A stretch of 64,000 nucleotides of DNA from Candidatus Woesearchaeota archaeon (GTDB lineage: Archaea; Nanobdellota; Nanobdellia; Pacearchaeales; GW2011-AR1). The stretch is from positions 26,856-90,855 of the forward strand of contig CAYWQI010000001.1 of NCBI GenBank assembly GCA_964460535.1, given 5' to 3'. The position numbers were made by a program, and so were the translations under genes. This document shows positions 9,510 to 41,053 of this stretch, one piece after another. A model generated the notes under the pieces. The model had not been told where the DNA came from, ran no database searches, and worked only from the letters and a program-made list of their open reading frames with translations. Positions within the stretch are counted from its first letter, which is position 1. Each line of letters opens with the position of its first letter.

Positions 9510-11105
9510 TTATAATTTTGTTCTTCTTAAAATCTCTTGAGTCATTTCAGATTGAAAACTTTCATGTTCTTCTGGAGAATACCATGAAGCAACAGAATAA
9601 ATATTTTTACAAGGACTTCTATTATGACAGAATCCTGTATACTGGCATTTAACTCTCATAAAATCTTTTATATCTTGAGGAAGATTGCTAGATTGTAAAA
9701 GTTCATATTCTTGCCAAGTTGTTTTTTTCATTTCAGGTTCTACATCCTTGCACCTTCTCAATGATTCAAAACCCGTTGTTAAATTATATGTATCATAAGT
9801 TCTAAAAACACCTAATTTTAAACCTCTAGGGAAAACATAGATTGCATCACTTTCTGGGATCCCAATTTCTTTTAATTTTTCAAAAGTATTATTTGAATCC
9901 ACAATTCTATTTATCCAGATATTTAAATTTTCAAAATCTTCTTTAATTTCTTCTGGAAGTGAAAAGACTCTTTCTAACTCTCTTAAATTAGGTCCCAAGC
10001 CATCTTTTTTATTTTCAATAATTCTTTGAACAATAGGAGAAATTCTTTTTCTTGCTTGATAAATAGATTCTGCTTCTTGTGGCATTGTCCTATGTCTTTT
10101 GTATTCTCCCCAAACTCTCCAAGGACTTACAGAAAAAACACTTGCTCGAACATCTTGATTATGGTCTTGAACAATTTCATGGGCTTCTTGCAATAGTTGT
10201 TCATGTTGTTTTTTTGTTAGGTCTTTTGATTTAGAAACTTCTTTAAATTTTTTCAACCATTTATAAATTCTATTTTTTCTATCTAAAGAATCTCGAGAAT
10301 ATGTATCAACAATTATTAGATTTTCAGAATTTTCATCTCTTAATTCTTCTGCAGAAGTTTTTCTATAATGAAAAATACTTGGATTTGGACAAGTTGCTCT
10401 TGGGGAAGCCTTTCTTGCCTCATACGTTATTGTCATTCCATTCTCATAAACCATCTCTTCAAGTTGTGATAAGATTTCCTTTCCTTCTTGAGGAATTGCA
10501 TTAGGATTAAATTTAAAATCTCTTGAAAATGAAACAAGAGTCTCTAGAGGAATTTTAATAAAGCCTCCTCCAGTTAAACCATATTGAACAATCTTTGAAG
10601 CTTGTTGTTTATGAACTCCTCTTTCTTTAAGTTTTTCATAAGCTCTAATGTTTTCTTTACTATTTTTCATATAAATTTGGACTGCTTCATTTCCTGCAGA
10701 TTTAATTGACTTTGGAACAAGAATCTGATCTTCTTTAATTGGAACTCTTCTTCCTGAAGGCATCAAAGCACTTTCAAATCTAGCCCCAGTAAACATAGAA
10801 TCAATAAATTTTGAAGTTGAGTCTTCTGCAGAAATTGTTAAATCAATACCTGTTGACAGAGAAGCATGCCCTGCACCCGCAGAATTAACAAGACCTTTCA
10901 TGAGTTTTCTATATTCCTCTTCGTCACCTTCACCATAGTCTCCTAGTTGAATTTTTCTAAGAACGTCTGAAAAATGTCTAACATCTTTAAAAGTAATTCC
11001 TGCAGCAGCACAGATAACTTCATCAGGATTGACAATTCTTCCTTCTTGCAATTTTATCTTTGGACTATAGTCTCTTAAATGAATTTTAGGATTAACAATT
11101 TGCAT
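9510..11105 (-). CDS. thyX: ThyX-like flavin-dependent thymidylate synthase, apparent tandem duplication
   Basis: The second half carries KRHRTMPQEAES, fitting the ThyX RHR-x7-S motif, preceded by FSVSPWRVWGEY (compare FHVKAPIFVARQWF). The first half shows a degenerate copy: GHASLSTGIDLTISAEDSTSKFIDSMF...SGRR. Confidence 0.4.
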   Translation of the reverse strand: MQIVNPKIHLRDYSPKIKLQEGRIVNPDEVICAAAGITFKDVRHFSDVLRKIQLGDYGEGDEEEYRKLMKGLVNSAGAGHASLSTGIDLTISAEDSTSKFIDSMFTGARFESALMPSGRRVPIKEDQILVPKSIKSAGNEAVQIYMKNSKENIRAYEKLKERGVHKQQASKIVQYGLTGGGFIKIPLETLVSFSRDFKFNPNAIPQEGKEILSQLEEMVYENGMTITYEARKASPRATCPNPSIFHYRKTSAEELRDENSENLIIVDTYSRDSLDRKNRIYKWLKKFKEVSKSKDLTKKQHEQLLQEAHEIVQDHNQDVRASVFSVSPWRVWGEYKRHRTMPQEAESIYQARKRISPIVQRIIENKKDGLGPNLRELERVFSLPEEIKEDFENLNIWINRIVDSNNTFEKLKEIGIPESDAIYVFPRGLKLGVFRTYDTYNLTTGFESLRRCKDVEPEMKKTTWQEYELLQSSNLPQDIKDFMRVKCQYTGFCHNRSPCKNIYSVASWYSPEEHESFQSEMTQEILRRTKL

Positions 11106-17783: not shown

Positions 17784-18725
17784 ATGTATCTTGAAAAGAA
17801 AAAAGTAAAAGGAAAGATAAAATACTATTTGGCACATTCTTTTAGAGAAGGGGGAAAAGTTCATAAAATTAGAAAAAAATTAGGTACAGATTTATCCAAA
17901 GAAATTTTAGAAGAAAGAATAAAAAAAGCAGAAGAATTGATTTTAGAAGAAATAGAAAAATACAAATTTATTAAGGATCCTCTTGATAAAGATTTATCCA
18001 AAGAAGAAATTGAATTTGTAAAAAGATTACAAAAAGAGAATAAATTTGAGATCTATCATCTATCTGAAAAAGAATGGAAATTATTTTCAAAGATATTCAC
18101 TTACAATACAAATGCAATTGAAGGTAGCAAGTTAACAAAAAAAGAAGTTGAAGAAGTTTTAGAAGAAAACAAATGGCCAGATAAATCAAAAGAAGATATT
18201 GCCGAGACTTATGGAGTCAATGAGGCCATTAAATTTGTAAGAGATACTAAAGAACATTTATCTATTGAATTATTAAAAAGCATACATACAATAGTTTTCA
18301 AAAATTCAAAATCCTTTGCAGGAAAATTTAGAAAAAAAGGAGAAGAAGTTGCAGTTATTAATTCTGATGGTTTTATTGTTCATGAAGGAGCGCCACAAAC
18401 AAGAGTCTTAGGATTATTAGAAAATTTAGTTAAATGGTATAATAAAAACAAGACCAAATATCCTGGATTAATTTTAGCATCAGTAGTCCATAACCAATTT
18501 GAAAACATTCACCCTTTTGCAGACGGAAATGGAAGAGTTGGAAGAATTATTATGAATAATATACTAATGAAAAATAATCTTCCCCCAATAAATATAGACT
18601 TAGATAATCGAAGTGAATATTATTCAATTTTAAAAGAATATGAAAAAAACAAAAATCTAAGGCCCACAATCGAGTTTTTGATAAAAGAATACAAAAAGAC
18701 TAAAAAACAAATAAAGAAGTTGTAG
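17784..18725 (+). CDS. Fic/Doc family protein (putative AMPylase)
   Basis: Canonical Fic motif HPFADGNGRVGR. 313 aa. Confidence 0.8.
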   Translation: MYLEKKKVKGKIKYYLAHSFREGGKVHKIRKKLGTDLSKEILEERIKKAEELILEEIEKYKFIKDPLDKDLSKEEIEFVKRLQKENKFEIYHLSEKEWKLFSKIFTYNTNAIEGSKLTKKEVEEVLEENKWPDKSKEDIAETYGVNEAIKFVRDTKEHLSIELLKSIHTIVFKNSKSFAGKFRKKGEEVAVINSDGFIVHEGAPQTRVLGLLENLVKWYNKNKTKYPGLILASVVHNQFENIHPFADGNGRVGRIIMNNILMKNNLPPINIDLDNRSEYYSILKEYEKNKNLRPTIEFLIKEYKKTKKQIKKL

Positions 18726-18913: not shown

Positions 18914-20203
18914 ATGAATAAAAATAAATTTAAACAACTTGGCTTAAGTGAGCAACTTTCAAAAAACCTTGAGAAAATTGGAATTACTGAACCTACAGAA
19001 ATTCAGGAAAAAACAATTCCTCTTACTTTAAAAGGAAAAGATGTAATTGGAGGAAGTGCAACAGGTAGTGGAAAAACTCTTGCTTTTTCTGCAAATATAA
19101 TTGAAAATATTCAAGATAAAAAACCTCAAGAAATTCAAGCACTTATCTTAACACCTACAAGAGAACTTGCAGAACAAATTCTAAATTCAATAAAAAGTTT
19201 TTCACAAGGCTTTCCAGTAAAAGTTTCAACAATCTATGGAGGTGTGGATATTGAAAAACAATTTAGAAATATTCCAAAATCAAATATTATTGTTGGAACT
19301 CCAGGAAGAATTTTAGATCATTTAAATAGAAAAACACTTAATCTTTCAAAAATAAAATATCTTGTTTTAGATGAAGTTGATAGAATGTTTGAAATGGGTT
19401 TTCAAGAAGATGTTGAAAAGATACTTTATTGTTGTCCAAAACCAAAAGAAAGACAAAACCTTTTGTTCTCTGCAACAATTTCTTCAGAAGTAGGATATCT
19501 TTCTGAAAAACATTCCAATAATCCAATAGAGATATCTGTTCAATCTCATGTTGATCCAGCAAAATTAAAACAAGTTTATTATGATGTTCCTTCATCAAGA
19601 AAATTTCCTTTATTAGTTCATTTATTAAAAAATGAAAGTGCAGATTTAGTTATGGTTTTCTGCAATACAAGAAGAAATGTAGATTTTGTGACTCAAAATT
19701 TAAAATTAAATAATATAAATGCTACAGCAATTCACGGAGGATTAACTCAAAATAAAAGAAAAAATGTTTTGTCTGATTTTCACAAAGGACAAACCAATGT
19801 TCTTGTTTGTACTGATGTTGCTGCCAGAGGATTAGACATAAAAAATGTAAGCCATGTTTATAATTATGATATGTCTCCAAATAGTAAAGAATACACTCAT
19901 AGAATAGGAAGAACTGCAAGAGCAGGAGAAGAAGGAATAGCAATAAATCTTATTTCTTCAAGAGATTATGAAAATTTTAGAGAAGTAATTGATAATCCAA
20001 AATTAAAAAAAGTAATAAAAAGAAGAGATTGTCCATATATTCCAAGAGCAAAAATGAAGATTCCTTCAAGAAATAATAAAGGAGATAATAGAAACAGAGG
20101 AAGATTTAATAAATCAAATAATAAATTTGGTCAAAGACATAAAAGAAATTTTCAAAAAAAGAATTCTCAAAAGAACTTTAAATCTAAAAAAAGAAATTTT
20201 TAA
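18914..20203 (+). CDS. DEAD-box ATP-dependent RNA helicase
   Basis: Q-motif region. GSATGSGKT (motif I). DEVD. SAT. HRIGRTARAG (motif VI). Basic RNA-binding tail. Confidence 0.85.
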   Translation: MNKNKFKQLGLSEQLSKNLEKIGITEPTEIQEKTIPLTLKGKDVIGGSATGSGKTLAFSANIIENIQDKKPQEIQALILTPTRELAEQILNSIKSFSQGFPVKVSTIYGGVDIEKQFRNIPKSNIIVGTPGRILDHLNRKTLNLSKIKYLVLDEVDRMFEMGFQEDVEKILYCCPKPKERQNLLFSATISSEVGYLSEKHSNNPIEISVQSHVDPAKLKQVYYDVPSSRKFPLLVHLLKNESADLVMVFCNTRRNVDFVTQNLKLNNINATAIHGGLTQNKRKNVLSDFHKGQTNVLVCTDVAARGLDIKNVSHVYNYDMSPNSKEYTHRIGRTARAGEEGIAINLISSRDYENFREVIDNPKLKKVIKRRDCPYIPRAKMKIPSRNNKGDNRNRGRFNKSNNKFGQRHKRNFQKKNSQKNFKSKKRNF

Positions 20204-21352: not shown

Positions 21353-21408
21353 TTTCCTCTTTTATATTAATAAGAGCAACTCTTCCTTTTTAAATTTTTC
21401 TAAGAATG

Positions 21409-21645
21409 GTCTTTGGTAACCAAAGTATGTTCTTCTTAATAATTTCTTATGGCTTTAATTTAAAAAATAATAAGAAATTTTAATTAATATTTTTTGAAGT
21501 TCTTTTGGATAATTGTGCCTTTAAATCAATTATTATTAGAAAATATTTCTATAACTCATATGTTTAAGATTTGAAATTTTTTACTATTAATCTTTTTTTA
21601 GTAAACATATTTGTTTTTATTTTTGTAGTTAGGACTACTATCTTC
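21409..21645 (+). mobile_element. MITE-like dispersed repeat, copy 2 (degenerate ends)
   Basis: Shares the internal blocks aataataagaaattttaattaatat, ttgaagttcttttggataattgtgcctttaaatc and tttatttttgtagtt with the other copies. Confidence 0.55.
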
Positions 21646-21729
21646 TAAGAGTGCAATTATCTGTAAAAACAAGATATCTTAATAATTAAAAATAATTAAA
21701 TTTAAAATATCTCATTTATTTAAGATTAT

Positions 21730-22524
21730 ATGATAAAAAAGAAAAAACTAGCTAAACTTACTTATATTTCACTAGTTTTATTTACAATCTTTATTTTATC
21801 TTCTATAAGTTATTTTTTTCTCAAAATACAGACTTCTGCAAGTTCTATTAAATATCTTTTAAATATTTTAAATGAAAAAAATTTTCAAGAAATATTAAAA
21901 CAAATAAGTTTTGAATTAGATTCTATTTCAGGATTAATAACAATACAAACAATATTTTCTTTAATAATTATTATTTCTCTTATTTCACTTGCGAGTTTTT
22001 TATTTAAAGCTTATTTAGTAAAACATAGAAATTCAATAATAGATCCTTTAACAGGAATTTACAACAGAGGAGCAATTAAATTTGGTCTTCAACAATCTAT
22101 TAAAGAATCAAGAAGATATAAACATCCTTTAAGTCTTGCAATTTTAGATATAGATCATTTCAAAACTTTTAATGATAAAAACGGACATACAAAAGGAGAC
22201 AACGCATTAATCAAATTTTCAAATATATTATCAAATGAAATAAGAGAATCAGATATTCTTGGAAGATACGGAGGAGAAGAATTTATAATAATCTTTCCTG
22301 AAACATCTTTAAAAAATTCTAAAAAAATCTGTGAAAGAATAAAAAACAAGATACAAAAAACATCTTTTGAAGGTGAAGAAAAACTTCCTGAAAAAAAATT
22401 AACAACAAGTATTGGTTTAGCTTCTTTTTCTGATAAAAGAAAAAGCCTCTCTTCATTAATAAATGAAGCAGATAAAAATCTTTATTCTGCAAAAGCTCTT
22501 GGAAGAAACAAAATAATTGGATAA
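21730..22524 (+). CDS. GGDEF-domain diguanylate cyclase with N-terminal transmembrane region
   Basis: Two N-terminal TM helices. A complete GGDEF domain: DPLTGIYNRG, ILDIDHFKTFNDKNGHTKGDNAL, RYGGEEF (intact GGEEF active site) and ADKNLYSAKALGRNK. Confidence 0.8.
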   Translation: MIKKKKLAKLTYISLVLFTIFILSSISYFFLKIQTSASSIKYLLNILNEKNFQEILKQISFELDSISGLITIQTIFSLIIIISLISLASFLFKAYLVKHRNSIIDPLTGIYNRGAIKFGLQQSIKESRRYKHPLSLAILDIDHFKTFNDKNGHTKGDNALIKFSNILSNEIRESDILGRYGGEEFIIIFPETSLKNSKKICERIKNKIQKTSFEGEEKLPEKKLTTSIGLASFSDKRKSLSSLINEADKNLYSAKALGRNKIIG

Positions 22525-22525
22525 T

Positions 22526-23821
22526 TTAATTTAAGTTATCTTTTTTAATAACTTTTTTACCATTCATGTAAGGTTGAAGAACTTTTGGAATTTTTATACT
22601 TCCATCTTTTTGTTGATTATTTTCTATTAAAGCAACAAGAGCTCTTGAAGTTGCAATAGCTGTATTGTTTAGAGTGTGAGGAATAATTCTTTGACCCTTT
22701 ATTCTTGTTGAAATTCCGAGTTTTCTTGCTTGAGCATCTGTCAAGTTTGAACAACTTCCAACTTCAAAATAATCCTTTTTTCTAGGAGAATAACTTTCAA
22801 TATCAACTTGCTCTTTTTTTAAATCTCCTAAATCTCCTGAACATATTTTTAAAACCCTTATTGGAATTTCCATTTTCTTGAATATGTCAATTGTAATTTT
22901 TTTCATTTGTTTATAAAAATTATCAGAATCTTCAGGTTTGCAAATTACAACCATCTCTATTTTATTAAATTGGTGTGTTCTAAATATTCCTTTTTCATCT
23001 ATTCCATGACTACCAATCTCTTTTCTAAAACACATACTATATGAAGTTTGTTTTAGAGGCAACCTTTTTTCATCTATTTCTCTATCAACAAATCTTCCAA
23101 TTAAAGAATGTTCTGAAGTTCCAATCAACGCCATTTTTTGTTCATCTTCAACAAGATAAATCTGCTGTTGTTTATCATTCAAATCAGTAACTCTGTCAAT
23201 AATTTCTTCTTTTAACATATAAGGAGTTTCAACATATCTAAATCCGCTTTTAACCATATAATCTCTTGCAAAATTTAACATTGCCTGGTTTAATAATGCA
23301 ATATCCCCTTCAATATAATAAAAACCATTTCCTGAAACTCTTGCTGAAGAATCAAAATCTCCTAAACCAAGTTCTTCTATTAATTCTCCATGAGATTTTA
23401 TTTCAAAATCTTGTTTTTTTGGTTTACCAATATATTCTTCAGGAACATTCTCCTCATCATCTTTTCCAATAGGAACATTTTCAGAAATAAGATTAGGAAT
23501 TTTAATTAAAATATCTCTAAGTTCTTTTTCTAATTTCTTTTCCTTTTTTTCATTATTTTCAATTTTTTTAGGAATCTCTTTTGCTTTTTTAATAAATTCT
23601 TTTGCTTTTTTTTCATCCTTGTTCTTTTTAGCTTTATTAATTTCTTCAGAAATCTTATTTCTTTCAGACCTCAATTTATCCCCTTTCTGTTTTTGAATTC
23701 TCCATTTTTCATCAATTTCAATTGCCTTATCCACAAGAGGAAGTTTATTTTCTTGAAATTTTTTCTTTATATTCTCTTTATAAATTTCAGGTCTTTCTCT
23801 AAGGTCTTTTATATCTATCAT
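22526..23821 (-). CDS. serS: seryl-tRNA synthetase
   Basis: N-terminal coiled-coil arm and class II motifs (FRKEIGSHG..., GLGDFDSS...). Start taken at MIDIKDL. Confidence 0.8.
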   Translation of the reverse strand: MIDIKDLRERPEIYKENIKKKFQENKLPLVDKAIEIDEKWRIQKQKGDKLRSERNKISEEINKAKKNKDEKKAKEFIKKAKEIPKKIENNEKKEKKLEKELRDILIKIPNLISENVPIGKDDEENVPEEYIGKPKKQDFEIKSHGELIEELGLGDFDSSARVSGNGFYYIEGDIALLNQAMLNFARDYMVKSGFRYVETPYMLKEEIIDRVTDLNDKQQQIYLVEDEQKMALIGTSEHSLIGRFVDREIDEKRLPLKQTSYSMCFRKEIGSHGIDEKGIFRTHQFNKIEMVVICKPEDSDNFYKQMKKITIDIFKKMEIPIRVLKICSGDLGDLKKEQVDIESYSPRKKDYFEVGSCSNLTDAQARKLGISTRIKGQRIIPHTLNNTAIATSRALVALIENNQQKDGSIKIPKVLQPYMNGKKVIKKDNLN

Positions 23822-23860
23822 GTAAATCAAAAAACAAGACATTATTTAAATCTTATTATC

Positions 23861-24140: not shown

Positions 24141-24809
24141 ATGACAGAGGTGGTAAATGAAATTGCGAATCAGACTACAGGAATATATCAAGAAATAGCA
24201 AGTGTTCTTCCACATCCTTTTGGAGTCTTGTTACCTGTTTTAGTACTTGTTTTAGGAGTTTTTATATATTCTTTATTTGTCTGGCATTTTTATAGGTTTG
24301 TTGCAAAAAAAGACCTTATTACTCTAAATTTAGGAGATTATGGAAAATCAATTGAAAATAATTTTATGTCAAAGATAGTTTTGGGGTTTATTTATTTTAT
24401 TGAAAACATCCTTTTTTCTCTAGTAATTATATTCATAGGTTATTCAGCATTTACAATTCTATTTATATTTTTAAATGAGTCTTTAACAACTCAAAATGTT
24501 ATCTTAGTTTCTGCAGTTATTGTTTCAGTTATAAGAATGACTGCTTATTATAAAGAAGCATTAGCTAAGGATTTAAGTAAAATGCTTCCTTTTACTTTAC
24601 TTGCTGTTTCACTACTTAATCCTAAATTTTTTGACATGTCAAGAATAGCCTCTTCTTTTTCAGACATATTTAATTTATTTGATATAATTATCTTGTATTT
24701 TTTATTCATTATTGTTCTTGAAGTTGTTTTAAGATTATCTGAATTTGTTTTTTCATTTTTTAGTCTAGAAGAAATTGAACAAAGAGAAGAAGAAGTAAAA
24801 GAAGAGTAA
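24141..24809 (+). CDS. integral membrane protein (hypothetical)
   Basis: Five predicted TM helices and an acidic C-terminus. Confidence 0.35.
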   Translation: MTEVVNEIANQTTGIYQEIASVLPHPFGVLLPVLVLVLGVFIYSLFVWHFYRFVAKKDLITLNLGDYGKSIENNFMSKIVLGFIYFIENILFSLVIIFIGYSAFTILFIFLNESLTTQNVILVSAVIVSVIRMTAYYKEALAKDLSKMLPFTLLAVSLLNPKFFDMSRIASSFSDIFNLFDIIILYFLFIIVLEVVLRLSEFVFSFFSLEEIEQREEEVKEE

Positions 24810-25054: not shown

Positions 25055-26761
25055 TCAATTCTTTTCCACTCGAGGATGTTCATGGCCTTTTTTCATTCTC
25101 TCAAGCAACATCTTGACATGTTTCTTTTTTTCATTTTCATATCCTTTTTTGTTTGATTTATCTTGAGAAATCATTTTTGCAACATATTCTCCTCCTAAGA
25201 AATGCGGAGTTAAAACATAACTAGCTCCTTTTCTATAAAGTTCCATTGCATCTTCAATCTGATGTGCAGTAACAATAATAATTGCATTTGGATTTACAAG
25301 CCTTATTTGTTCAATCAATAATAGATTTGTTTCTTGGTCAGGAATTGTTGAAACTGCAAGTTGCATTTTGTCAAGAGGTAATTCTTCAAGTAAATCTGTA
25401 TCATAACTATCTCCATATAAACAAGGAATTCTTAATTTTTTTAAATCTTCAATAACATCAGGATTAAAATCTACTACAAGATATTTCTTTTTTATTTTTT
25501 TCAAGGATCTCAAAATACTAAATCCAATTCTATTATATCCAAATAAAATAGCATCATAGTGTTTGCTTGTATTTCTTGATTTTTTAATGTTCTTTTTTTC
25601 AAATATAGATAAAAATCTAGAGATTCTATTATAAATTTGCTTTGAATAAGTAATCATATAAGTTGAACCTGCAATTGTTATTAAACCAACTACAGTTACA
25701 AGCGAGAGTACTGTTGAATCAACATGGCCTACAGAAACTCCAAGTGCAACAAGAATTATAGAGAATTCACTTATTTGTGCTACAGTTAATCCAGATAAAA
25801 ACCCTGTTCTTTTTGTGTATCCCATTGAACCCATTAAAACCATTACAATAAAAGGATTTCCAATAAGAATAAATAAAGAAAACATAACTATTGGAAAAAT
25901 ATTATCTATTACATTACCCATTTCCATTTGAGAACCAATAATTATAAAGAATAAAACAATAAAGAAATCTCTTAGAGGTTTCATTTTTGAACTTATTTCA
26001 TTTGAATAAGGAGTTGTAGATAAAATTATTCCTGCTAGTAATGCACCAATTTCTAGAGAAAAATTAAGAAAATCAAACCAGCTTGCAAGTGCTAAACACC
26101 ATCCAATTGAAAAAAGAAATAAAAATTCTTGTGACCTTGCTATTTTCTTTAAAAGAGAAGGCATAACACTAAGACCTAATAAAAAAAGAATAGTTATGCT
26201 CAAAAATCCATAAATAAGAATACTTGTAATAGAACCTGAATCACTATTTCCAGAAAATGAAGAAACAGCCATTAAAATAAAAACTGCAATCAAATCTTGA
26301 ACAATCAAAAAACCAACAGAAATTTTTCCATAAAGACTATTCATATCTCCTTTATCTGATATTAGTTTCATAATAATAATAGTACTACTAAATGTAAGAG
26401 CTATAGCAATGTATACAGAAGCAATAATAGAAAATCCTAATAAAAAGGAAATAATAAAAGATATTATTGAGGTAAAAAGAACTTGTCCAACACCAGTAAC
26501 TAGGGATATTTTTCCAACCTCTTTAATAACTTTAGGATTAAGATGCAAACCAACAGTAAAGAGAAGCAATGCAACACCTATCTTTGAGAAAGTTCCTAAT
26601 GCAGAACCCTCTGAAATTAAATTTAAAAAAATAGGCCCAACAAGAATTCCTGTGATAATATAACCTATTAACAAAGGCTGTTTAAATGCTTTCATAATTG
26701 CAGAAACACCAATAGCTACAATAAGTATAATTGATAATTGTATAAATGTATTTTCTATCAT
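25055..26761 (-). CDS. CPA2-family monovalent cation/H+ antiporter (Kef-type) with C-terminal TrkA-N/RCK domain
   Basis: About 12 TM helices followed by a Rossmann RCK region (LVVDFNPDVIEDL...). Confidence 0.7.
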   Translation of the reverse strand: MIENTFIQLSIILIVAIGVSAIMKAFKQPLLIGYIITGILVGPIFLNLISEGSALGTFSKIGVALLLFTVGLHLNPKVIKEVGKISLVTGVGQVLFTSIISFIISFLLGFSIIASVYIAIALTFSSTIIIMKLISDKGDMNSLYGKISVGFLIVQDLIAVFILMAVSSFSGNSDSGSITSILIYGFLSITILFLLGLSVMPSLLKKIARSQEFLFLFSIGWCLALASWFDFLNFSLEIGALLAGIILSTTPYSNEISSKMKPLRDFFIVLFFIIIGSQMEMGNVIDNIFPIVMFSLFILIGNPFIVMVLMGSMGYTKRTGFLSGLTVAQISEFSIILVALGVSVGHVDSTVLSLVTVVGLITIAGSTYMITYSKQIYNRISRFLSIFEKKNIKKSRNTSKHYDAILFGYNRIGFSILRSLKKIKKKYLVVDFNPDVIEDLKKLRIPCLYGDSYDTDLLEELPLDKMQLAVSTIPDQETNLLLIEQIRLVNPNAIIIVTAHQIEDAMELYRKGASYVLTPHFLGGEYVAKMISQDKSNKKGYENEKKKHVKMLLERMKKGHEHPRVEKN

Positions 26762-26894
26762 TTTTCTCTTTTTTATATCTTTAAAAAAAGAAAAAAGGGT
26801 ATAAAAAGCTTTTTAAACCTTCTAACATCTATTTTTATAGGTTGGAAAGTTGGAGGAGGTTTCCAAGAATATAAAACATAATGGAAAAAGCAAA

Positions 26895-27203
26895 ATGCCA
26901 AAAGTAAGAATAAAATTAAATAGTCCAGATATAGAAATGCTTAATAATATCTGTGATTCTATAAAACAAACTGCTAAAAAATCTGGAATAAATATTTCTG
27001 GTCCTGTTCCTCTTAAAACAAAAAAACTTAAGATTACTACAAGAAAAAGTCCTTGTGGTGACGGAACTGCAACATTTGATAATTATGAAATGAGAATTCA
27101 TAAAAGACTAATTGACATTCCAGCAAATGAAAAAATACTTCATCATATAATGAGGATGAAAGTTCCAAAATCTGTGAATATTAAGATTGAAATGAAAGAA
27201 TAG
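26895..27203 (+). CDS. rps10: 30S ribosomal protein S10
   Basis: PKVRIKLNSPDIEMLNNICDSIKQTAKKSGINISGPVPLKTKKL...EMRIHKRLIDI matches uS10. Start taken at the internal M. Confidence 0.75.
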   Translation: MPKVRIKLNSPDIEMLNNICDSIKQTAKKSGINISGPVPLKTKKLKITTRKSPCGDGTATFDNYEMRIHKRLIDIPANEKILHHIMRMKVPKSVNIKIEMKE

Positions 27204-27346: not shown

Positions 27347-27994
27347 ATGAAAAAAAGAAATAAAAAAGGTTTATTTATTGCTTTTGAAGGAATTGATGGA
27401 TGTGGAAAAGGAACTCAAATAAAAAAACTTTTAGAATATATAAACAATATTAGTAAATATAATCCTCTTCTTTTAACAAGAGAACCTTATTCAGATACAG
27501 ATATTAGAACAATTTTAAAGAGTGAAGACAATCCTTATTCTCAAAAAGAAAAACTTACAGAGCTTTTTATCTATGATCGTAGAAAACATTTGAAAAATTT
27601 AATAAAACCAAATTTAAAAAAAGGAGTTCATGTTATTTCAGATAGATATAGCTTATCAACTCTTGCTTATCAAAATGCTCAAGGAATGCCTTTAAATGAA
27701 TTATTAAGGATGCATAAAGGAATTTTAATTCCAGATATTATTTTTCTTATTGACATTTCAGGACAAGAAGCAGTTGAAAGAATGCAAAAAGATTTTTCAA
27801 GAGTAGAAGAACAGAAATTTGAAAAGTCTGCAGAATTTTTAGAAAAACTAAGAAAAAATTATTTAAAATTATCTGATTTAAAAAATCACAACATTGTTTT
27901 AATCAATGGTATGAATAAACCAGAACAAATATTTAATGAACAAATACTTCCTGCTTTTCATAAGATTTATAACTCTTACAATAATTCTAGATAA
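27347..27994 (+). CDS. tmk: thymidylate kinase
   Basis: P-loop FIAFEGIDGCGKGTQ. DRY-like motif DRYSLST. Confidence 0.8.
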   Translation: MKKRNKKGLFIAFEGIDGCGKGTQIKKLLEYINNISKYNPLLLTREPYSDTDIRTILKSEDNPYSQKEKLTELFIYDRRKHLKNLIKPNLKKGVHVISDRYSLSTLAYQNAQGMPLNELLRMHKGILIPDIIFLIDISGQEAVERMQKDFSRVEEQKFEKSAEFLEKLRKNYLKLSDLKNHNIVLINGMNKPEQIFNEQILPAFHKIYNSYNNSR

Positions 27995-28004
27995 TAAGTT
28001 TTAT

Positions 28005-28085
28005 GCCTGTATCGCATAATGGTATTGCACTGCCTTGGAGTGGCAGGCCTTTCGAGGCTTCCCTGTTCGATTCAGGGTGCAGGCG
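28005..28085 (+). tRNA. tRNA-Ser (anticodon GGA)
   Basis: Acceptor stem GCCTGTA/TGCAGGC with one G-U pair. Anticodon stem CTGCC/GGCAG with loop tTGGAgt. Long variable arm. T-arm CCCTG-TTCGATT-CAGGG. Discriminator G. Same architecture as the Ser-TGA gene at 756. Confidence 0.8.
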
Positions 28086-28101
28086 TTTTATAATATTAAA
28101 A

Positions 28102-29118
28102 ATGATATCAAAAAATAAGATTATTACTCAAATGAATAAGCAAGGATATAGATTTATAGGTCCTCAAGGAGCTGTGAAAATTTGCAGATGGACAAAGAAA
28201 TCTCTTAATGGTGAAGGTTGCTGTTATAAGGAAAAATTCTATGGAATAAAATCCCATAAATGTTGTCAAGTTACACCTTGGTTAGGCTGTGATAATAAAT
28301 GTTTACATTGTTGGAGAGCTATTGAATTTGATTTTAATAATTTTAATAAAAATAAAATAACTAAACCCCAAGAATTTATTCAAGAATCAATTCAATTCCA
28401 AAGAAAACTTCTCCAAGGTTTTAAAAAAGATCCAAAGAGTAAGAAAAAACAACTTTCAAAAGCAGATCAATTTCTTTGGAAAGAAGCACAAGAACCAGAT
28501 CAGTTTGCAATTTCTTTAAGTGGAGAACCAACAATTTATCCATATATTGGAGAATTTATTCAAGAATTAAGAAAACAAGATAAAACAAGTTTTTTAGTTA
28601 CAAATGGTTTGCACCCTCTTATTTTAAAAGAACTTTATAAAAAAAATCAACTTCCAACTCAACTTTATGTTTCTGTAAATTCAAGTAATAAAAAAGATTA
28701 TCTTCCTTTTCATAGAAGTCAAATAAAACAGCCTTGGAAAAAATTAAATTCATCATTAGAACTCTTACCAAAACTAAATAAAAAAACAAGAACAGTTTTT
28801 AGAATAAACCTAATCAAGGATTTAAATATGTCTGATAAAAATATTAATGAATTTGCAGAATTAATTAAAAAATCCCAAGCAAGATTTATTGAACTTAAAG
28901 GATTTATGTCTGTAGGTTTTGCAAGAAAAAGATTAGGATATAATAGAATGCCTTATCACGAGGACATAAAAGAATTTGCAAAAAAACTTGAAAAACAACT
29001 AAACAAAATTGATGTAAAATATAAAATTCTAGATGAACATTATTTCTCTAGAGCAATTGTTTTAGGTAATTCAAAAACAGGAAAAAAAGATTTAAAGATA
29101 AAGAAGAAAGAGGTTTGA
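28102..29118 (+). CDS. taw1: tRNA 4-demethylwyosine synthase Taw1 (radical SAM, TYW1 homologue)
   Basis: KQGYRFIGPQGAVKICRWTKKSLNGEGCCYKEKFYGIKSHKCCQVTPWLGCDNKCLHCWR matches archaeal Taw1. The ORF-track start at 28003 lies inside the tRNA, so the start at 28102 is used. Confidence 0.75.
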   Translation: MISKNKIITQMNKQGYRFIGPQGAVKICRWTKKSLNGEGCCYKEKFYGIKSHKCCQVTPWLGCDNKCLHCWRAIEFDFNNFNKNKITKPQEFIQESIQFQRKLLQGFKKDPKSKKKQLSKADQFLWKEAQEPDQFAISLSGEPTIYPYIGEFIQELRKQDKTSFLVTNGLHPLILKELYKKNQLPTQLYVSVNSSNKKDYLPFHRSQIKQPWKKLNSSLELLPKLNKKTRTVFRINLIKDLNMSDKNINEFAELIKKSQARFIELKGFMSVGFARKRLGYNRMPYHEDIKEFAKKLEKQLNKIDVKYKILDEHYFSRAIVLGNSKTGKKDLKIKKKEV

Positions 29119-30775: not shown

Positions 30776-31159
30776 TCATTTAAATGTCCATAACAAAGAG
30801 CCAAGGAAACTTAAGGGAATTCCAGCAATAATTCCAGAGATAGCAGCAATATTCGCATAAAAAGTTCCATCCCCTAAAAGAGAATTAACTAATAAACTTA
30901 CACAGAAATTAACTAAAAAGACAAAAGAGTAAACAAGAAGATATCTTGGAATTTGATAATAAAATCTTTTATTTCTTGCATTAAATATAAAATTCCTATT
31001 TATTATAAAAACAAAACTTATAGAAAACAAAATTGCAAGTAATTTAGATATCTGAAAGATTATTCCAAATGAATAAAATATATTAAATATCAGTAGTTCT
31101 AGAAGTGCTCCAGTTCCACCAACCATACAAAACCCAATAAATTTTTTTAAGATATTCAT
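30776..31159 (-). CDS. GtrA-family membrane protein
   Basis: 127 aa with four TM helices. Sits in a glycosyltransferase neighbourhood. Confidence 0.5.
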   Translation of the reverse strand: MNILKKFIGFCMVGGTGALLELLIFNIFYSFGIIFQISKLLAILFSISFVFIINRNFIFNARNKRFYYQIPRYLLVYSFVFLVNFCVSLLVNSLLGDGTFYANIAAISGIIAGIPLSFLGSLLWTFK

Positions 31160-31228
31160 AAAGATGATAATAAAAAAAGATTAATAAAATTAACTAAAAC
31201 TTATAAATACAAATAAATTATAAGTTTT

Positions 31229-31920
31229 ATGAAGCTTTCAATAATTGTTCCAATTTATAATGAAGAAGATACTCTAAGAAAAATTTTCAATAAAATACAA
31301 GAAGCTAAATTACCTATAGAAAAAGAGATAATACTTGTAGATGATTTTTCAACAGATAAAACCAGGAAAATTTTAGAATTCATTAAGTTCCAAAACGTAA
31401 GAAGAGTTTATCATTCTGAAAATAAAGGAAAAGGAGAAAGCATAAGAACAGGAATAAGGAAATCAACAGGAGACATAATCTTAATTCAAGATGCAGATTT
31501 GGAATATTCTCCAAAAGATTATACAAGACTAATTTATCCAATTTTAAATAAAAAAACTAAAGTAGTCTATGGTTCTAGATTTTTAAAAAAATATTATCAT
31601 AGAAAAACACCTTTTTTTATGCAAATAAATGCCTTTCTCTTTTAACTTCTATTCTATATTTTAAAAGAATAACAGATATGGAAACATGTTACAAGGTCTT
31701 TGACAAGGAATTAAAATCACTTGTTCTCAAAACCAAATCAAAGGGCTTTGATATAGAACCAGAGATAACTGCAAAAATTTTAAGAAAAAAATATAAAATA
31801 AAGGAGATACCTATTTCTTATTTTCCAAGAAAAGCAAGTCAAGGAAAAAAAATAAGATTTTATGATGGGTTTAAGGCAGTCATAACTCTTTTAAGATTCA
31901 GATTTAAATCTCTGGATTAA
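31229..31920 (+). pseudogene. family-2 glycosyltransferase (DPM1-like), interrupted by a frameshift in a T7 run
   Basis: IIVPIYNEEDTL...LVDDFSTDKT...IQDADLEYSP. The frame is lost at the T run 31612-31618. The -1 frame continues ...YANKCLSLLTSILYFKRITDMETCYKVF..., the typical GT2 downstream region. Confidence 0.55.
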
Positions 31921-33385
31921 GAAATCTACAGGTTTTGTAAGCAAGTTTTTTCAATTTCAAAAAATCAAATCTTTCAGAAATAAACTCACATTGATTTGAA
32001 ATACTCGGAGAACCATATCCTCTCCATCTTGGACAATTTTCTTTTGTTAAGTTTTCTGGAATTATTATTGTATATTCTTCTTCTGAAATAATCCTTGAAT
32101 AATTATCGATATTTCTTTGATTGTATTTATCATCAATAGTTTTAAAACTAGTAAATATGGCAACAATTTTATTTTGGGAAATTGCCTTTTCAATATCATA
32201 GGGTAGAAAAAAAGCAGTTTCAACATAATAATTTATTAAAACCCAATGAGGACTAAGAACAATACACCCATCTAAATCTAAATTTTCTATTTCTTGTGAA
32301 ACAGTTTTAAAGGCCTCTGAAGTTTTATTTTGGTAGGCATTTATTGTAAGGAAAATTATAAATAAAGAAAATAAAACAAGAATTAATAAGAATACTATCT
32401 TTCTACAGATTTTTTTGCATTTTATTTTATTCCATATTAAGATGAATCCAAGTGATGAAAAAAATGCCACAGGCAAGGTTATATTGAACAAATATCTAAA
32501 TATCTTAAAGGGGGTTTGATACCAATCTAAGAGAATCATTAGGAAAATAAGTATAAAAACCAGAGGAATTTTGATAGATTTAGTTTTTTCTTTTTTACAC
32601 AGATAAATAAAATATCCCAAACCAATAATAAAAAAAGGAATTAACCAATTTATAGATATCAACATACCTGAAATATCAAATGCTTGAAACAAATTCTGTC
32701 TTGAAACAACATTTAAATTATATGAATCAACTATGCTTGCAAAACCATTTCCATATTTAAAAAAATAAAATAAATAAAATGGAAAAAGAGTAATTAAAAA
32801 AATGGAAATATCAATAAAAATTTTTTTCCAACTCTTGTTAAAAAATAAAAAAATAAAAAACATTAAAAAATTATATCTTGTTAAAAATGCAAGACCTAAA
32901 AAATGTCCAGAGTATTTGTTTTGCAAAAAAAAGCATAAAAAAAGCATAAAAAAACTTAATCCTAAAAGTTCAGTTCCAAGAAGAGTAGCATATTGCAATA
33001 CAAAAGGAGATAAAAGAAAAAAGTAAAAAATTAATCTAAATAATTCTTTATCTATTTTAAATCTGTAAAAATATTTTAAATAAAGAGTATCTGAAAGTTT
33101 TATAGAAGAAAAAAAGAAGAGGCTTGTCACAAGAACAATAAAAGTGTATTCCATTAATTTTCCAAGAGGTAGTAATAAGAATAAAATAAAACTTACAAGA
33201 GGAGCACGATAGATTTCAAAGGCACCATTTTGAGAAAATAAGTTTTGTGCATTTAAGACATAGGCCATAAAATCCCAATTTAGATTAAGAGAGTGCTGAA
33301 TAAGAAAAAAGATTAAAGAAATAAGAAACAAATAAATCAATAATTTATTTTTAGAAATAAAATTCTTAATACCCTCTAATTTCAT
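31904..33385 (-). CDS. polytopic membrane protein, possibly a GT-C-type glycosyltransferase
   Basis: About 12 TM helices, Phe/Leu-rich. Sits among GT2 and GtrA genes. Confidence 0.3.
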   Translation of the reverse strand: MKLEGIKNFISKNKLLIYLFLISLIFFLIQHSLNLNWDFMAYVLNAQNLFSQNGAFEIYRAPLVSFILFLLLPLGKLMEYTFIVLVTSLFFFSSIKLSDTLYLKYFYRFKIDKELFRLIFYFFLLSPFVLQYATLLGTELLGLSFFMLFLCFFLQNKYSGHFLGLAFLTRYNFLMFFIFLFFNKSWKKIFIDISIFLITLFPFYLFYFFKYGNGFASIVDSYNLNVVSRQNLFQAFDISGMLISINWLIPFFIIGLGYFIYLCKKEKTKSIKIPLVFILIFLMILLDWYQTPFKIFRYLFNITLPVAFFSSLGFILIWNKIKCKKICRKIVFLLILVLFSLFIIFLTINAYQNKTSEAFKTVSQEIENLDLDGCIVLSPHWVLINYYVETAFFLPYDIEKAISQNKIVAIFTSFKTIDDKYNQRNIDNYSRIISEEEYTIIIPENLTKENCPRWRGYGSPSISNQCEFISERFDFLKLKKLAYKTCRFLNPEI

Positions 33386-33386
33386 T

Positions 33387-34040
33387 TTAATTTTTGATAT
33401 GTTCTTTTATATCATTTACATTTTTAAATTTATTAATGATTGCTTTTTCATTTATTACAAGCATGTTTGGTTGATTAATATTATATTTTTGTTTTAAAAT
33501 ATCTATAACATTTGAATCTAGATTATAATCAAAAGAGTAAACCATTACTTCTTCTTGATTCTTTAGGGAACTAAGCATTATACCTATTTCTTCTGCCCTT
33601 TCCTTTAAATTTTTCTCATTTGAATAAAAGAAAAGAATTGTGGGTATTTCATTTGGACAATTTTCATTATTTTCTTTAATGTACAAAAAATGCCTGGTTT
33701 CTAAAAGAGAGTATATCTTCTTTTGTTGTAAGATATCTGGATTATTTTCTCCAAGTCTTTGTTCAAGTATACCAATAATTCTTCCAAGATTATCCATTTT
33801 TTCACTAAATAAATAAGGATTAAAGTTTTCACAATCATCTCCTAATAGATTTTTCTGAATTTCAAAACTTAGTAATTCATATCTTAAATCTTCCTGTGAT
33901 TGAATTAATTTTTGAGAGTTGTAATAAGAGAGAATATAACCTAAAAAAAAGATTCCTATAAAGATAATAGTTCCCAATATAACTGCTATAATGAAATTCC
34001 TTAAATAACGAGTATTTTTTTCCATTTTTATTTTAATCAA
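33387..34040 (-). CDS. hypothetical membrane-anchored protein
   Basis: One N-terminal TM helix. ORF only. Confidence 0.3.
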   Translation of the reverse strand: MIKIKMEKNTRYLRNFIIAVILGTIIFIGIFFLGYILSYYNSQKLIQSQEDLRYELLSFEIQKNLLGDDCENFNPYLFSEKMDNLGRIIGILEQRLGENNPDILQQKKIYSLLETRHFLYIKENNENCPNEIPTILFFYSNEKNLKERAEEIGIMLSSLKNQEEVMVYSFDYNLDSNVIDILKQKYNINQPNMLVINEKAIINKFKNVNDIKEHIKN

Positions 34041-34060
34041 TCACTCTTTTTATATTTTTC

Positions 34061-35308
34061 CTATCTCCAAGATACTTTTTTAGTTAAAAAATGATATATA
34101 AAAGAAATTACCCACCAAAATGCAAACAAAAAAGAGTATAAGGCTAAAAAAAGTGGAAGACTAAGTCTTATGTTACTATGCTCTTTGACCTTCCTTTTTG
34201 CAAAAATCATATAACCCCAAGTCATTAATATAAATAATATAAAAAAAAGCATAATTGGATCTGTAAAAAAATTAATAATAAAAGATTCTATAGCATATTT
34301 ACTAAACTCAATAGTGCTGAATATATTAAAATTAACACTCTGTAGAAAATTAAATTGTTTTTTTGTATCAATTATTGAGCGAATTGCAATAATCAGGGTT
34401 AATATAACTGTAACCATTATTGCAAAGATTGCCGAAGGAAGCACTACTAACCCTAACGATTTATGTTCTTTTGTAAATAATCTTTTATATTTTAAAAAAT
34501 TTCTAATTAGTCCAATATACCACCTTTTTCTTTGAATCAAAAGTTGTTTAAACTTTCTTGGAGGTTTTGTATAAACAATTGATTCAAGACTATTTTCAAC
34601 AATCAAATGATGGGCATGTATCCTTAGTGCCATTTCCATGTCTTCAGTTAAATTATCTGTATCAAATCCTCCATGCTCTTCAAAAAAAGATTTTCTATAT
34701 GCAGAAAAAGCTCCAGGAGTTATATGGACTGCATTAACACTTGCAAAAGCCTCTCTTAAATATACTCCAAGAAGGTATTCTATTTGTTGAATTCTTTCTA
34801 AAATATTCTTTGGATTATAGATTGCAACAATCGGAGATACACACATTACATCCGGATTTCTAAAATAAACTACCTGGTTTTTTAATGCATTGGGTTTAAC
34901 TATTGAATCTGCATCCATTGTAACAACAATTTCTCCCTGAGATTTTGAAATTCCATAATTCAATGCACTTCCTTTTCCACCATTTTTTTTAGAAAAGACT
35001 TTTACTTTTTCACTAGAATATTTTTTTGCTATTTCCAGAGTTTTATCCTTACTTCCATCATCTACAACAATTATCTCTAATTTATCTTCTGGATAATCAA
35101 TTCCTAAAGCAGATTCAATTGTTCTTGCAATACCCTTTTGTTCATTATATGCAGGAATAATAATTGATACAAAAGGAGATTCTTTTTCTCTAAAAACAAG
35201 GTCTGTTTTTTTCTTTATATTTTTTCTTCCAAAAATATTAAGAGTGTAAAATATAAAAATAATAATTCCAATATAAGAAGAGAGATAGATTAAAAAATTG
35301 CTAATCAT
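34061..35308 (-). CDS. membrane-bound family-2 glycosyltransferase (processive, QxxRW type)
   Basis: IIIPAYNE, VVDDGSKDKT, TMDADS and QRKRW, flanked by TM helices. Confidence 0.7.
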   Translation of the reverse strand: MISNFLIYLSSYIGIIIFIFYTLNIFGRKNIKKKTDLVFREKESPFVSIIIPAYNEQKGIARTIESALGIDYPEDKLEIIVVDDGSKDKTLEIAKKYSSEKVKVFSKKNGGKGSALNYGISKSQGEIVVTMDADSIVKPNALKNQVVYFRNPDVMCVSPIVAIYNPKNILERIQQIEYLLGVYLREAFASVNAVHITPGAFSAYRKSFFEEHGGFDTDNLTEDMEMALRIHAHHLIVENSLESIVYTKPPRKFKQLLIQRKRWYIGLIRNFLKYKRLFTKEHKSLGLVVLPSAIFAIMVTVILTLIIAIRSIIDTKKQFNFLQSVNFNIFSTIEFSKYAIESFIINFFTDPIMLFFILFILMTWGYMIFAKRKVKEHSNIRLSLPLFLALYSFLFAFWWVISFIYHFLTKKVSWR

Positions 35309-40084: not shown

Positions 40085-40888
40085 ATGACAGAATTTAAAA
40101 TACCTAAACCAAAACCAGATTTTGAAGGAACAGGCTCACCTGTAAACTTTGCAGATGTTAGGGATGTTTATGCTGAGGCTGTAGAAAAGTTAGTTTTATA
40201 TGATTATGCTAAGTTTGGTAAGGATTGGCAAAATAGAGCACTTGATATTTTAATTGGAGATGAGAGGGTTTATTCTCCATCTTCAGAAGGAAAGTGGAGA
40301 GGTTCAAATCCTCCTATCTGTACTTTGATGCAAGAAAAGATTAAAGGATTAGATTTAATTACATTACAACAATCAAGAAGAGCTTATGAAGCCAATGGAA
40401 ATAGACCTCCTGTTCCTAATGCTTATTTTGAACATGGTTGGGCAGTTATTCCTGGACAAAATTCAGATTATAAAAGAAATCCTGAAATTGCTTCAAGACT
40501 TGTGGAAGGTTTAAAGAGTAAAGGAATTGAAGTTGGGAAAGGGAGGGTTATTAATTTCTCCCAATTACATCTTCAACCAGTACAAGATATAAGAATATTT
40601 GATTTTGTTATAAATAATACTACAACAGAAGATAATGTTGCTAAGGTTGGGGATTATAATTGGGATTACGGTTTTCCTAATTCAGCAAGTGGCGCTTTCC
40701 GTGCGATTCTTGGCAGTAACTCGGGCTGGGGTGTCGGCAGAGGCAATCCTGAGATTTCGGGCGAGGATGGTCGGGTAGTGCGGTTTATAGCCGAAGGCGA
40801 CGCGCCAGAAAAATTAAGTTCTCTAGTTCAAGAAAAAGATCCTCTAAAAGAGAGAATCACAGAATTTAGAAAAAGAATTTCTTCTTAG
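40085..40888 (+). CDS. DGR target (variable) protein, with the variable repeat at its 3' end
   Basis: The codons of the 3' region 40696-40777, AFRAILGSNSGWGVGRGNPEISGEDGRV, are the mutated counterpart of the template repeat at 41054-41135. The region is locally GC-rich in an AT-rich gene. Confidence 0.7.
   Translation: MTEFKIPKPKPDFEGTGSPVNFADVRDVYAEAVEKLVLYDYAKFGKDWQNRALDILIGDERVYSPSSEGKWRGSNPPICTLMQEKIKGLDLITLQQSRRAYEANGNRPPVPNAYFEHGWAVIPGQNSDYKRNPEIASRLVEGLKSKGIEVGKGRVINFSQLHLQPVQDIRIFDFVINNTTTEDNVAKVGDYNWDYGFPNSASGAFRAILGSNSGWGVGRGNPEISGEDGRVVRFIAEGDAPEKLSSLVQEKDPLKERITEFRKRISS
40696..40777 (+). repeat. DGR variable repeat (VR)
   Basis: Matches the TR at 64 of 82 positions. Of the 18 mismatches, 17 are TR=A (16 are G in the VR, 1 is T). 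Confidence 0.75.
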
Positions 40889-41053
40889 AAAGTTTTATAA
40901 ATTTCTTTTTTGATTTAATATTCCTAATCAGAAATGGTTAGGCTACACGCCAAATTATTGAGAATACAGATTTTCCTTGCGAGGAACTTCAGTGAGCAAA
41001 ATAATTTTGTGAAATAATAATTTGGCTATTAAGTTCCGTGCGATTCTTAATAG

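Follow-up and report, generated by a model that had tools for sequence, protein, structure and literature searches.

Diguanylate cyclases, the GGDEF-domain enzymes that produce cyclic di-GMP (c-di-GMP), were described as almost exclusively bacterial in a 2023 review (PMC10249747), and published work still regards c-di-GMP itself as essentially lacking in archaea (PMC10249747, PMC5847659). Galperin et al. (2018) knew only a Methanocella GGDEF protein from archaea; where archaeal draft genomes contained other regulators of bacterial type, they suspected contamination (PMC5847659). Braun et al. (2021) obtained more than 300 unverified GGDEF BLAST matches, many of them in metagenome-assembled genomes (MAGs) of Asgard and DPANN archaea, and reported no c-di-GMP in Haloferax or Sulfolobus (PMC8646023). 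According to Roemling (2022), GGDEF proteins on archaeal contigs still await confirmation (PMC10086821), and surveys have tallied cyclase genes in archaeal or ultra-small MAGs but gave no analysis of them (PMC9938205, PMC12781772). No study devoted to the diguanylate cyclases of DPANN archaea turned up in the literature searched. Here, we analysed a 64,000-nucleotide stretch of contig CAYWQI010000001.1 from a Candidatus Woesearchaeota archaeon (GCA_964460535.1, positions 26,856 to 90,855), hereafter the window, which carries a gene for a GGDEF protein at positions 21730–22524. With a probability of about 80%, this gene encodes a genuine, catalytically competent, membrane-anchored DPANN enzyme of a small DPANN-specific family of about 260 amino acids, which is vertically inherited at a conserved locus and sometimes tandemly duplicated.

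The gene is an ATG-to-stop open reading frame (ORF) of 264 amino acids on the forward strand. Its product matched the Pfam GGDEF profile PF00990 with E = 1.3e-44 and 152.3 bits (cutoff 23.8) over profile positions 2–161 of 161, and was identical to GenBank MFW5846551.1, a "GGDEF domain-containing protein" of a Nanoarchaeota archaeon on a 98.6-kb contig. The catalytic domain was placed at residues 103–261 (22036–22512, + strand) by Pfam, phmmer, and Foldseek. A phmmer search against PDB sequences returned 54 distinct GGDEF-domain sequences, mostly diguanylate cyclases, with the c-di-GMP-bound Marinobacter domain 3ign as the best match (1.5e-32), followed by PleD, WspR, DosC, DgcZ, and others.

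The two transmembrane (TM) helices that the initial annotation had placed before this domain were recovered in the hydropathy plot (Kyte–Doolittle, 19-residue window) as hydrophobic segments centred at residues 15–25 and 72–89, with peaks of 2.3 and 2.6, and in the structural model as a hairpin. TM helix 1 (approximately residues 10–31; 21757–21822, +; peak 2.28) belongs to the modelled helix 2–45 and is preceded by the lysine-rich cytoplasmic N-terminus MIKKKKLAK, giving an N-terminal charge of +5/0. TM helix 2 (approximately residues 68–92; peak 2.55) and the cytoplasmic stalk (93–104) occupy 21931–22041 (+) within the modelled helix 52–103, and the segment KAYLVKHR after TM helix 2 is positive and lies inside. 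Between the two TM segments lies the extracytoplasmic tip of the helical hairpin (approximately residues 32–67; 21823–21930, +), which has a net charge of 0. Since the N-terminus and the segment after TM helix 2 are positive and the 36-residue loop is neutral, the protein is predicted to have its N-terminus inside and its GGDEF domain in the cytoplasm. The tip, which was modelled as a helix-turn-helix with the turn at residues 46–51 and is weakly conserved in the family, is the only candidate for a sensory input of the cyclase.

The gene is preceded by an AT-rich intergenic region of 377 bp (21353–21729, +), in which direct reading of the sequence revealed a TATA-like TTTAAAATA at 21701–21709 (−29 to −21 from the ATG) and no Shine–Dalgarno sequence. 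This arrangement would fit a promoter of archaeal type and an mRNA with no leader, but the evidence is weak. The TATA-like reading was not relied on because the region has a GC content of only 24%.

Alignment with the GGDEF domain of PleD indicated that the domain is intact, as had been claimed from its GGEEF motif and Mg/GTP ligands, and none of the catalytic residues was missing from the structure-based alignment. The active-site (A-site) motif G181-G-E-E-F185 (22270–22284, +) aligned with PleD residues 368–372. D140 and E183 correspond to the metal ligand D327 and the Mg2+ ligand E370 of PleD, K145 to the transition-state lysine K332, N148 and D157 to N335 and D344, which recognise guanine, and K255 and R259 to K442 and R446, which bind phosphate; D142 is likewise among the metal, guanine, and phosphate ligands present. 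The RxxD motif of the product-inhibition site (I-site), R172-E-S-D175 (22243–22254, +), aligned with PleD R359/D362 and lies five residues upstream of GGEEF, with ILGRY in between, while R203 corresponds to the secondary I-site arginine R390. The numbering of the PleD reference sequence, which we take to be correct, matched both the literature and the coordinates of 2wb4 from the PDB search.

Within the family described below, whose members are only 35–45% identical, D140, E183, K145, N148, and D157 were invariant. R172 and D175 were invariant in 12 of 12 and 20 of 20 family sequences, and R203 was at least 90% conserved. The GGEEF motif was invariant both in the family and in a mixed alignment of family and bacterial sequences; K255 and R259 were invariant in the family and at least 90% conserved in the mixed alignment.

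An AlphaFold2 model of the monomer, predicted from a 34-sequence alignment, had a mean predicted local distance difference test (pLDDT) score of 91.7. Helices 2–45 and 52–103 formed the hairpin, and helix 52–103 ran unbroken from the outer tip through TM helix 2 into the GGDEF domain. When the model was compared with the PDB using Foldseek, the top matches were all active diguanylate cyclases (E ~1e-18), with target-normalised TM-scores of 0.85–0.91 to the isolated domains 3ign, 5euh, and DosC, and root-mean-square deviations (rmsd) of 2–3 Å to 3ign, 5euh, 4zve, and PleD. The highest-ranked alignments, covering more than 200 columns, were to the cyclases PadC (5llx), WspR (3i5a), SiaD, and DgcB (6ttr), which are regulated through stalks or coiled coils, and the stalk helices were aligned together with the domains. 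Judged by its residues and predicted fold, the protein is apparently a working, catalytically competent, product-inhibited diguanylate cyclase. The continuous helix of TM helix 2 and stalk in the model is compatible with dimerisation and is not a proof of it.

The archaeal context noted in the initial annotation was borne out by a Pfam search of all window ORFs of at least 100 amino acids, which identified archaeal/eukaryal-type genes on both flanks of the cyclase, and by the Nanoarchaeota label of the identical protein. The upstream markers included the stalk proteins P1/P2 (3083), L10P/P0 with an insert (3436), L1, and aIF5B (7672), as well as S24e, Spt4, and Rpo7 (11.4–12.8 kb). Downstream, S10, Taw1 (28.0 kb), Hjc (43.7 kb), PriS (49.8 kb), PCNA, RpoL, RadA, Nre, and topoisomerase I (TopoI) were found. 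The window had a uniform GC content of approximately 26%. The cyclase gene, with a GC content of 22.8% and a third-position GC content (GC3) of 7.9%, fell inside the window range (GC3 of the neighbours 5.7% to 22%), which settled the earlier question of whether its composition fits that of its neighbours. A convergent seryl-tRNA synthetase (SerRS) gene, identified by Pfam at 22526–23842 on the − strand, lies 1 bp from the GGDEF stop codon, and this junction was reproduced on an independent 2.4-kb Logan contig (L095, run SRR11308339). Because of the GC/GC3 fit, the independent junction, and the archaeal flanks, the bacterial or chimeric contig against which the initial annotation had warned is effectively excluded.

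When 5.8 billion proteins were searched with the single sequence and with profiles, approximately 27 clusters (90% identity) of relatives emerged, with 241–283 amino acids, which aligned end to end and were 35–45% identical. These family members scored 262–391 bits and the window protein 361 bits, whereas non-family bacterial GAF-, REC-, and PAS-GGDEF proteins scored at most 243 bits and matched in the catalytic domain only. The 262-bit entry (P0137) is a 485-amino-acid two-domain protein that was left out of the later family analyses, so that the band then started at 278 bits. In a HMMER search of 1.84 billion representatives at 50% identity, at least 15 full-length single-domain family representatives were found among approximately 600,000 GGDEF representatives. 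The family was defined by a length of approximately 250–285 amino acids, a two-TM hairpin with the N-terminus inside, the stalk motif (N/S)ALID(E/P)LT..YNR, an active GGDEF domain with an I-site, and archaeal contigs on which the gene lies near SerRS, TopoI, and RadA. The window protein shared the end-to-end alignment, the TM pattern, the score band, and the adjacency to SerRS, and one family member was labelled Candidatus Pacearchaeota. It is probable that the DPANN matches of Braun et al. include this family.

The nearest non-family sequences by profile score were P0138, a 262-amino-acid 2TM-GGDEF protein, and P0020, which have a similar overall architecture and a similar stalk motif (ALIDELTxIYNRR). 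They differed from the family in their scores (243 bits for P0138 and 239 bits for P0020, versus 262–391 bits). The gene for P0020 lies on a bacterial contig with a GC content of 60%, where its neighbours encode CopB, a multicopper oxidase, and c-type cytochromes, and P0138 lies on a 3-kb contig, which is too little to assign a host. A further sequence, P0011 (an 18-kb ENA contig), probably arose either by recombination of a family member with a different GGDEF gene or as a chimera of the assembly. It was dropped from the family analyses because its first ~138 residues were identical to those of P0009 and its C-terminal half diverged sharply; in the domain tree it fell outside the family.

All seven long contigs with family members that were examined (13–257 kb; JGI, ENA, and NCBI samples) were archaeal, as indicated by markers such as MCM, RadA, eIF2beta, RpoL, CDC48, and the archaeal PheRS beta subunit. 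SerRS, the conserved syntenic anchor of the family, was located 0.1–8 kb from the GGDEF gene in six of the seven loci (L001, L003, L005, L087, L088, and L089), and TopoI/RadA were also nearby in five of the seven. The recurring neighbourhood was RpoL – AMMECR1 – RadA – TopoI – GGDEF – Metallophos – UPP synthase – SerRS – eIF2beta. In the window, this neighbourhood is split, with RpoL, RadA, and TopoI at 55–62 kb, and the cyclase is still beside SerRS. Six genes were collinear between the window and locus L088, with the same order and orientation. Besides GGDEF (39% identity) and SerRS (59%), these were an unknown membrane protein (24141–24809, +; 43%), an NhaP/TrkA-N antiporter (25055–26761, −; 58%), ribosomal protein S10 (26850–27203, +; 83%), and thymidylate kinase, Tmk (27347–27994, +; 29%). 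The position of the cyclase was kept across genomes in which RadA and SerRS are only 38–59% identical.

Three loci carried tandem GGDEF copies (L001, 9150–10777; L087, 9016–10630; L089, 10001–11602). The two copies were approximately 50% identical to each other, and each had as its orthologue, with 59–79% identity, the copy at the same position in the other loci.

The evolutionary comparisons pointed to long residence in these genomes. The GC content of the cyclase genes tracked that of their loci (r = 0.95) in hosts of 26–40% GC. The pairwise identity of the cyclases correlated with that of RadA (rho 0.77) and TopoI (rho 0.69); because pairs share members and so lack independence, the p-values of these correlations are indicative only. 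Applied to the four closest orthologous pairs, the Nei–Gojobori method gave dN/dS ratios (nonsynonymous to synonymous substitution rates) of 0.10–0.17 for both tandem copies, at dS values near saturation. Taken together, the conserved locus, the amelioration, the co-divergence, the purifying selection, and the invariant residues indicate that the ancestor shared by a deep DPANN clade already carried the gene, and that selection for cyclase activity and for binding of c-di-GMP at the I-site has maintained it since.

No EAL, HD-GYP, PilZ, or MshEN-type domain was detected by Pfam in window ORFs of at least 100 amino acids over the 64 kb, in line with the earlier statement that no EAL, HD-GYP, or PilZ partner is seen there. 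The precomputed Pfam annotations of approximately 120 kb of related loci likewise contained no EAL, HD-GYP, PilZ, or MshEN-type domain, and an Rfam scan of the window and the related loci found no c-di-GMP-I/II (GEMM) riboswitch, whether the gathering threshold or a cutoff of E ≤ 1 was applied. As far as the data reach, the cyclase is thus an orphan within the window and the related loci covered.

Five of the eight archaeal loci encoded, no more than a few kb from their GGDEF genes, a Metallophos/Metallophos_2 phosphoesterase of approximately 200 amino acids (L001, 12620–13222; L003, 11427–12026; L005, 7540–8157; L087, 14064–14681; L089, 11910–12518). It was absent from the window and had no PDB sequence relative at E ≤ 1e-3. 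Its role as a non-canonical c-di-GMP phosphodiesterase partner is conceivable only, and the candidate was set aside since its linkage is indistinguishable from housekeeping synteny. A downstream gene for a winged helix-turn-helix (wHTH)-like protein of 280 amino acids was also rejected as a conserved partner, being common only to the close relatives L001 and L087. The window further contains a polysaccharide gene cluster (30776–35308) comprising a GtrA-like gene (30776–31159), a short glycosyltransferase family 2 (GT2) gene (31229–31645), two ORFs of no known kind, and a processive cellulose/chitin-synthase-like GT2 gene (34061–35308). No PilZ domain was attached to the GT2/GtrA cluster proteins. 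By analogy with the control of bacterial exopolysaccharides, it is conceivable that these genes are an output of c-di-GMP.

The lack of canonical partners could also be read differently. The enzyme may be active and yet make c-di-GMP for export or transfer to the host or to neighbouring bacteria, whose biofilm/motility switch it would manipulate, or as a nucleotide store or another non-signalling product; the lack of canonical receptors and phosphodiesterases would then be accounted for. Besides the absence of EAL, HD-GYP, PilZ, and riboswitches from the window and the related loci, this explanation is favoured by the biology of DPANN archaea, which are obligate episymbionts with reduced genomes. 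Diguanylate cyclase genes were also enriched in MAGs of sediment-attached ultra-small prokaryotes, with Patescibacteria and DPANN pooled (PMC9938205). However, the invariant I-site points to tight intracellular control of the product, as in bacterial signalling enzymes, and no exporter or secretion gene was linked to the cyclase. Most of the hosts known for DPANN are archaea, in which c-di-GMP receptors are not known to occur, and only a fraction of each genome was surveyed, so that receptors may lie elsewhere or be non-canonical. We therefore consider export or storage unlikely.

The initial annotation had offered a horizontally acquired bacterial gene as an explanation. In its recent form, in which a possibly neutral or decaying import persists as a functionless orphan, this is very improbable. 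It would fit the lack of partner genes in the window and the plausibly bacterial ultimate origin of the domain, which is only 36–47% identical to bacterial ones. Against it stand the full amelioration across hosts of 26–40% GC, the conserved position and co-divergence with RadA and TopoI, the invariance of all A-site and I-site residues at 35–45% overall identity, and the low dN/dS together with tandem paralogues that are orthologous across genomes. While a one-off or recent import did not hold up, an ancient bacterial origin remains plausible. Any such origin must be ancient because of the amelioration, the housekeeping-like divergence, the purifying selection, the conserved position, and the tandem duplication, and the family's origin is explained most economically by a transfer out of Bacteria long ago.

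The phylogeny of the GGDEF domain, proposed earlier as a check of bacterial affinity, gave a partial answer. Of the nearest non-family sequences, P0020 was bacterial, and the best domain-only matches beyond the family were bacterial, with 40–49% identity. The neighbour-joining (NJ) tree of the domain alone (211 sequences, 167 columns) did not single out a bacterial donor lineage. On the domain alone, family members that had not been used to build the hidden Markov model (HMM) outscored 182 out of 183 non-family sequences. The remaining one, P0006 (248 bits), is a 172-amino-acid fragment and probably a family member. A scan of GTDB genome contigs with back-translated motifs (DIDHFKxYND, RYGGEEF) gave bacterial loci and no archaeal locus among the matches listed, the source genome included, and is uninformative on archaeal distribution.

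A different product, either 3′,3′-cyclic GMP-AMP (3′,3′-cGAMP) made by a Hypr-GGDEF enzyme or c-di-AMP or an oligonucleotide made by a Cas10-like palm, or a role as a defence cyclase, appeared even more improbable. GGDEF and Cas10 palm domains share a fold. A PADLOC search of the cyclase gave only a weak Cas10 match, with E = 2e-4 over 44 residues and no stretch passing alone, and some relatives had weak precomputed matches to the Cas10-Cmr2 palm PF22335. However, Hypr-GGDEF enzymes carry Ser/Thr at the position of PleD D344, where the family has the invariant D157, and N148 is intact. Because D157 corresponds to PleD D344, specificity for guanine rather than Hypr/cGAMP specificity is expected. 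Moreover, no cas, CARF, HD, or other defence genes were found adjacent to the cyclase among the window ORFs, and the neighbourhood is of the housekeeping type.

Finally, the mis-joining of a bacterial GGDEF gene into an archaeal contig during assembly or binning, suggested by the overwhelmingly bacterial distribution of GGDEF and of the domain-only matches beyond the family and by the contamination warnings in the literature (PMC5847659, PMC10086821), is effectively refuted by the host-like composition of the gene, the 1-bp distance to SerRS with a junction repeated in an independent Logan assembly, the orthologues in a conserved neighbourhood on archaeal contigs from different samples, and the archaeal markers on both flanks.

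A vertically inherited, membrane-anchored DPANN cyclase is thus the preferred explanation, and several observations weigh against it. In the NJ tree, monophyly of the family was recovered in only ~25% of the bootstraps, and the point tree placed one bacterial fragment (P0205) inside the family. All host genomes are MAGs or metagenomic contigs, with taxon labels given by the depositors. Neither the 64-kb window nor approximately 120 kb of related loci yielded a phosphodiesterase or receptor, and the signalling circuit is incomplete as seen. The proposed dimerisation and the sensing role of the hairpin derive from analogy and from a model of the monomer. In addition, no archaeon has yet been found to contain c-di-GMP (PMC8646023, PMC10249747).

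Under the vertically inherited cyclase, the following mechanism can be proposed. The protein would insert with its N-terminus in the cytoplasm, with the two TM helices forming a helical hairpin whose 36-residue tip faces outward and TM helix 2 continuing unbroken into the short stalk helix that bears the cytoplasmic GGDEF domain. By analogy with WspR, PadC, and DgcB, two protomers may pair via their TM2/stalk helices, bringing together two GTP-loaded A-sites. Alternatively, tandem paralogues might pair in the same way as a heterodimer, which is possible because both copies are under purifying selection. Given the intact residues, the dimer would convert 2 GTP into c-di-GMP and 2 pyrophosphates, and binding of c-di-GMP to the RxxD/R203 I-site would limit the output. 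More speculatively, a change at the hairpin tip or in the state of the membrane might shift the register of the stalk and tune the activity, and the product might control attachment or surface polysaccharide downstream, or signal to the host.

It can be proposed more tentatively, at somewhat less than even odds, that a deep DPANN clade of the Pacearchaeota/Nanoarchaeota type has c-di-GMP as a genuine second messenger, made by a vertically inherited, feedback-inhibited membrane cyclase and served by readers and degraders other than EAL, HD-GYP, and PilZ proteins, which would be new archaeal effectors, or by passage between symbiont and host. If true, no system of c-di-GMP signalling would have been known from the domain Archaea before it. 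The retention, and even duplication, of the cyclase in reduced genomes suggests that it matters for the episymbiotic lifestyle, for example in attachment or surface polysaccharide.

Several other features of the window were recorded. A diversity-generating retroelement (DGR) is located at 40085–42127, with a variable repeat (40697–40772) inside the C-terminus (amino acids 205–230) of the target ORF 40085–40888 and a template repeat at 41034–41109; 14 of the 15 repeat mismatches fall at template adenines. Its RVT_1 reverse transcriptase is split over the overlapping ORFs 41142–41732 and 41714–42127, a sub-threshold match to the Rfam "RT-16 RNA" lies at 40923–41034, and a local rise in GC to 31–37% coincides with the element. 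DGRs are common in DPANN archaea. A ParE-like toxin homologue was found at 42397–42648. A Fic/DOC-domain protein (17784–18725, +) gave strong PADLOC matches to the candidate defence systems SoFic and PDC-S04 (E down to 3e-36) and adjoins a DEAD-box helicase (18914–20203).

A tRNA-Ser(GGA) called by ARAGORN at 28004–28086 overlaps the start given for the ORF of Taw1 (wyosine; 28003–29118), and this tRNA-Ser and another at 755–837 were not reported by Rfam at the gathering threshold. Probably, either Taw1 starts further downstream or the tRNA-Ser(GGA) call is atypical. In a 531-amino-acid ORF (9510–11105, −), the ThyX (Thy1) domain covers only residues 293–471, behind a long N-terminal extension with no Pfam match. 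A tyrosine recombinase/integrase (62688–63497, −) adjoins topoisomerase I. Since a homologue with 45% identity lies near the GGDEF gene in L005 (12301–13122), the window recombinase may be an XerA-like housekeeping protein and not part of a mobile element.

The presence of GGDEF proteins in DPANN archaea is not new. Because the enzyme type is ordinary and the protein was already annotated in GenBank, the advance lies in distribution and evolution and not in mechanism. For one lineage, the locus answers the question of whether archaeal GGDEF matches are real or contamination. It also makes c-di-GMP signalling in Archaea directly testable, with a soluble domain of approximately 170 residues.

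Compared with the stalk-regulated bacterial cyclases, namely PleD (1w25/2v0n), WspR (3bre/3i5a), DgcB (6ttr), and PadC (5llx), and with 3ign, the window protein has the same catalytic domain at 34–38% identity. It shares with the stalk-regulated enzymes the GGEEF motif, the ligands, the RxxD I-site, the secondary arginine, and the long helix leading into the domain. Unlike these enzymes, it has a two-TM hairpin as its input instead of a REC, PAS, GAF, or phytochrome module, it belongs to an archaeal host, and no cognate EAL, HD-GYP, or PilZ gene was seen near it in the window.

To our knowledge, DgcA of Dictyostelium is the only established non-bacterial diguanylate cyclase. In 2012, Chen and Schaap (cited in PMC8646023) reportedly proved its activity by experiment, and its c-di-GMP is said to be a secreted morphogen. 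As a domesticated GGDEF enzyme of bacterial type that works outside Bacteria, in a host with no canonical EAL, HD-GYP, or PilZ partners, DgcA is a precedent for the window protein. In contrast, the host of DgcA is a eukaryote and its activity is proven, whereas that of the window protein is predicted from sequence.

The earlier archaeal GGDEF proteins are CAJ37382 of Methanocella arvoryzae and the REC-(inactive GGDEF) proteins of 'Ca. Micrarchaeum acidiphilum' (PMC5847659). These proteins, like the matches of Braun et al. (PMC8646023), were treated as possibly contaminant or inactive and without genomic context, and CAJ37382 was set apart from the present family by its description only. The family of the window protein, in contrast, combines an intact active site and I-site with synteny, amelioration, co-divergence, and purifying selection.

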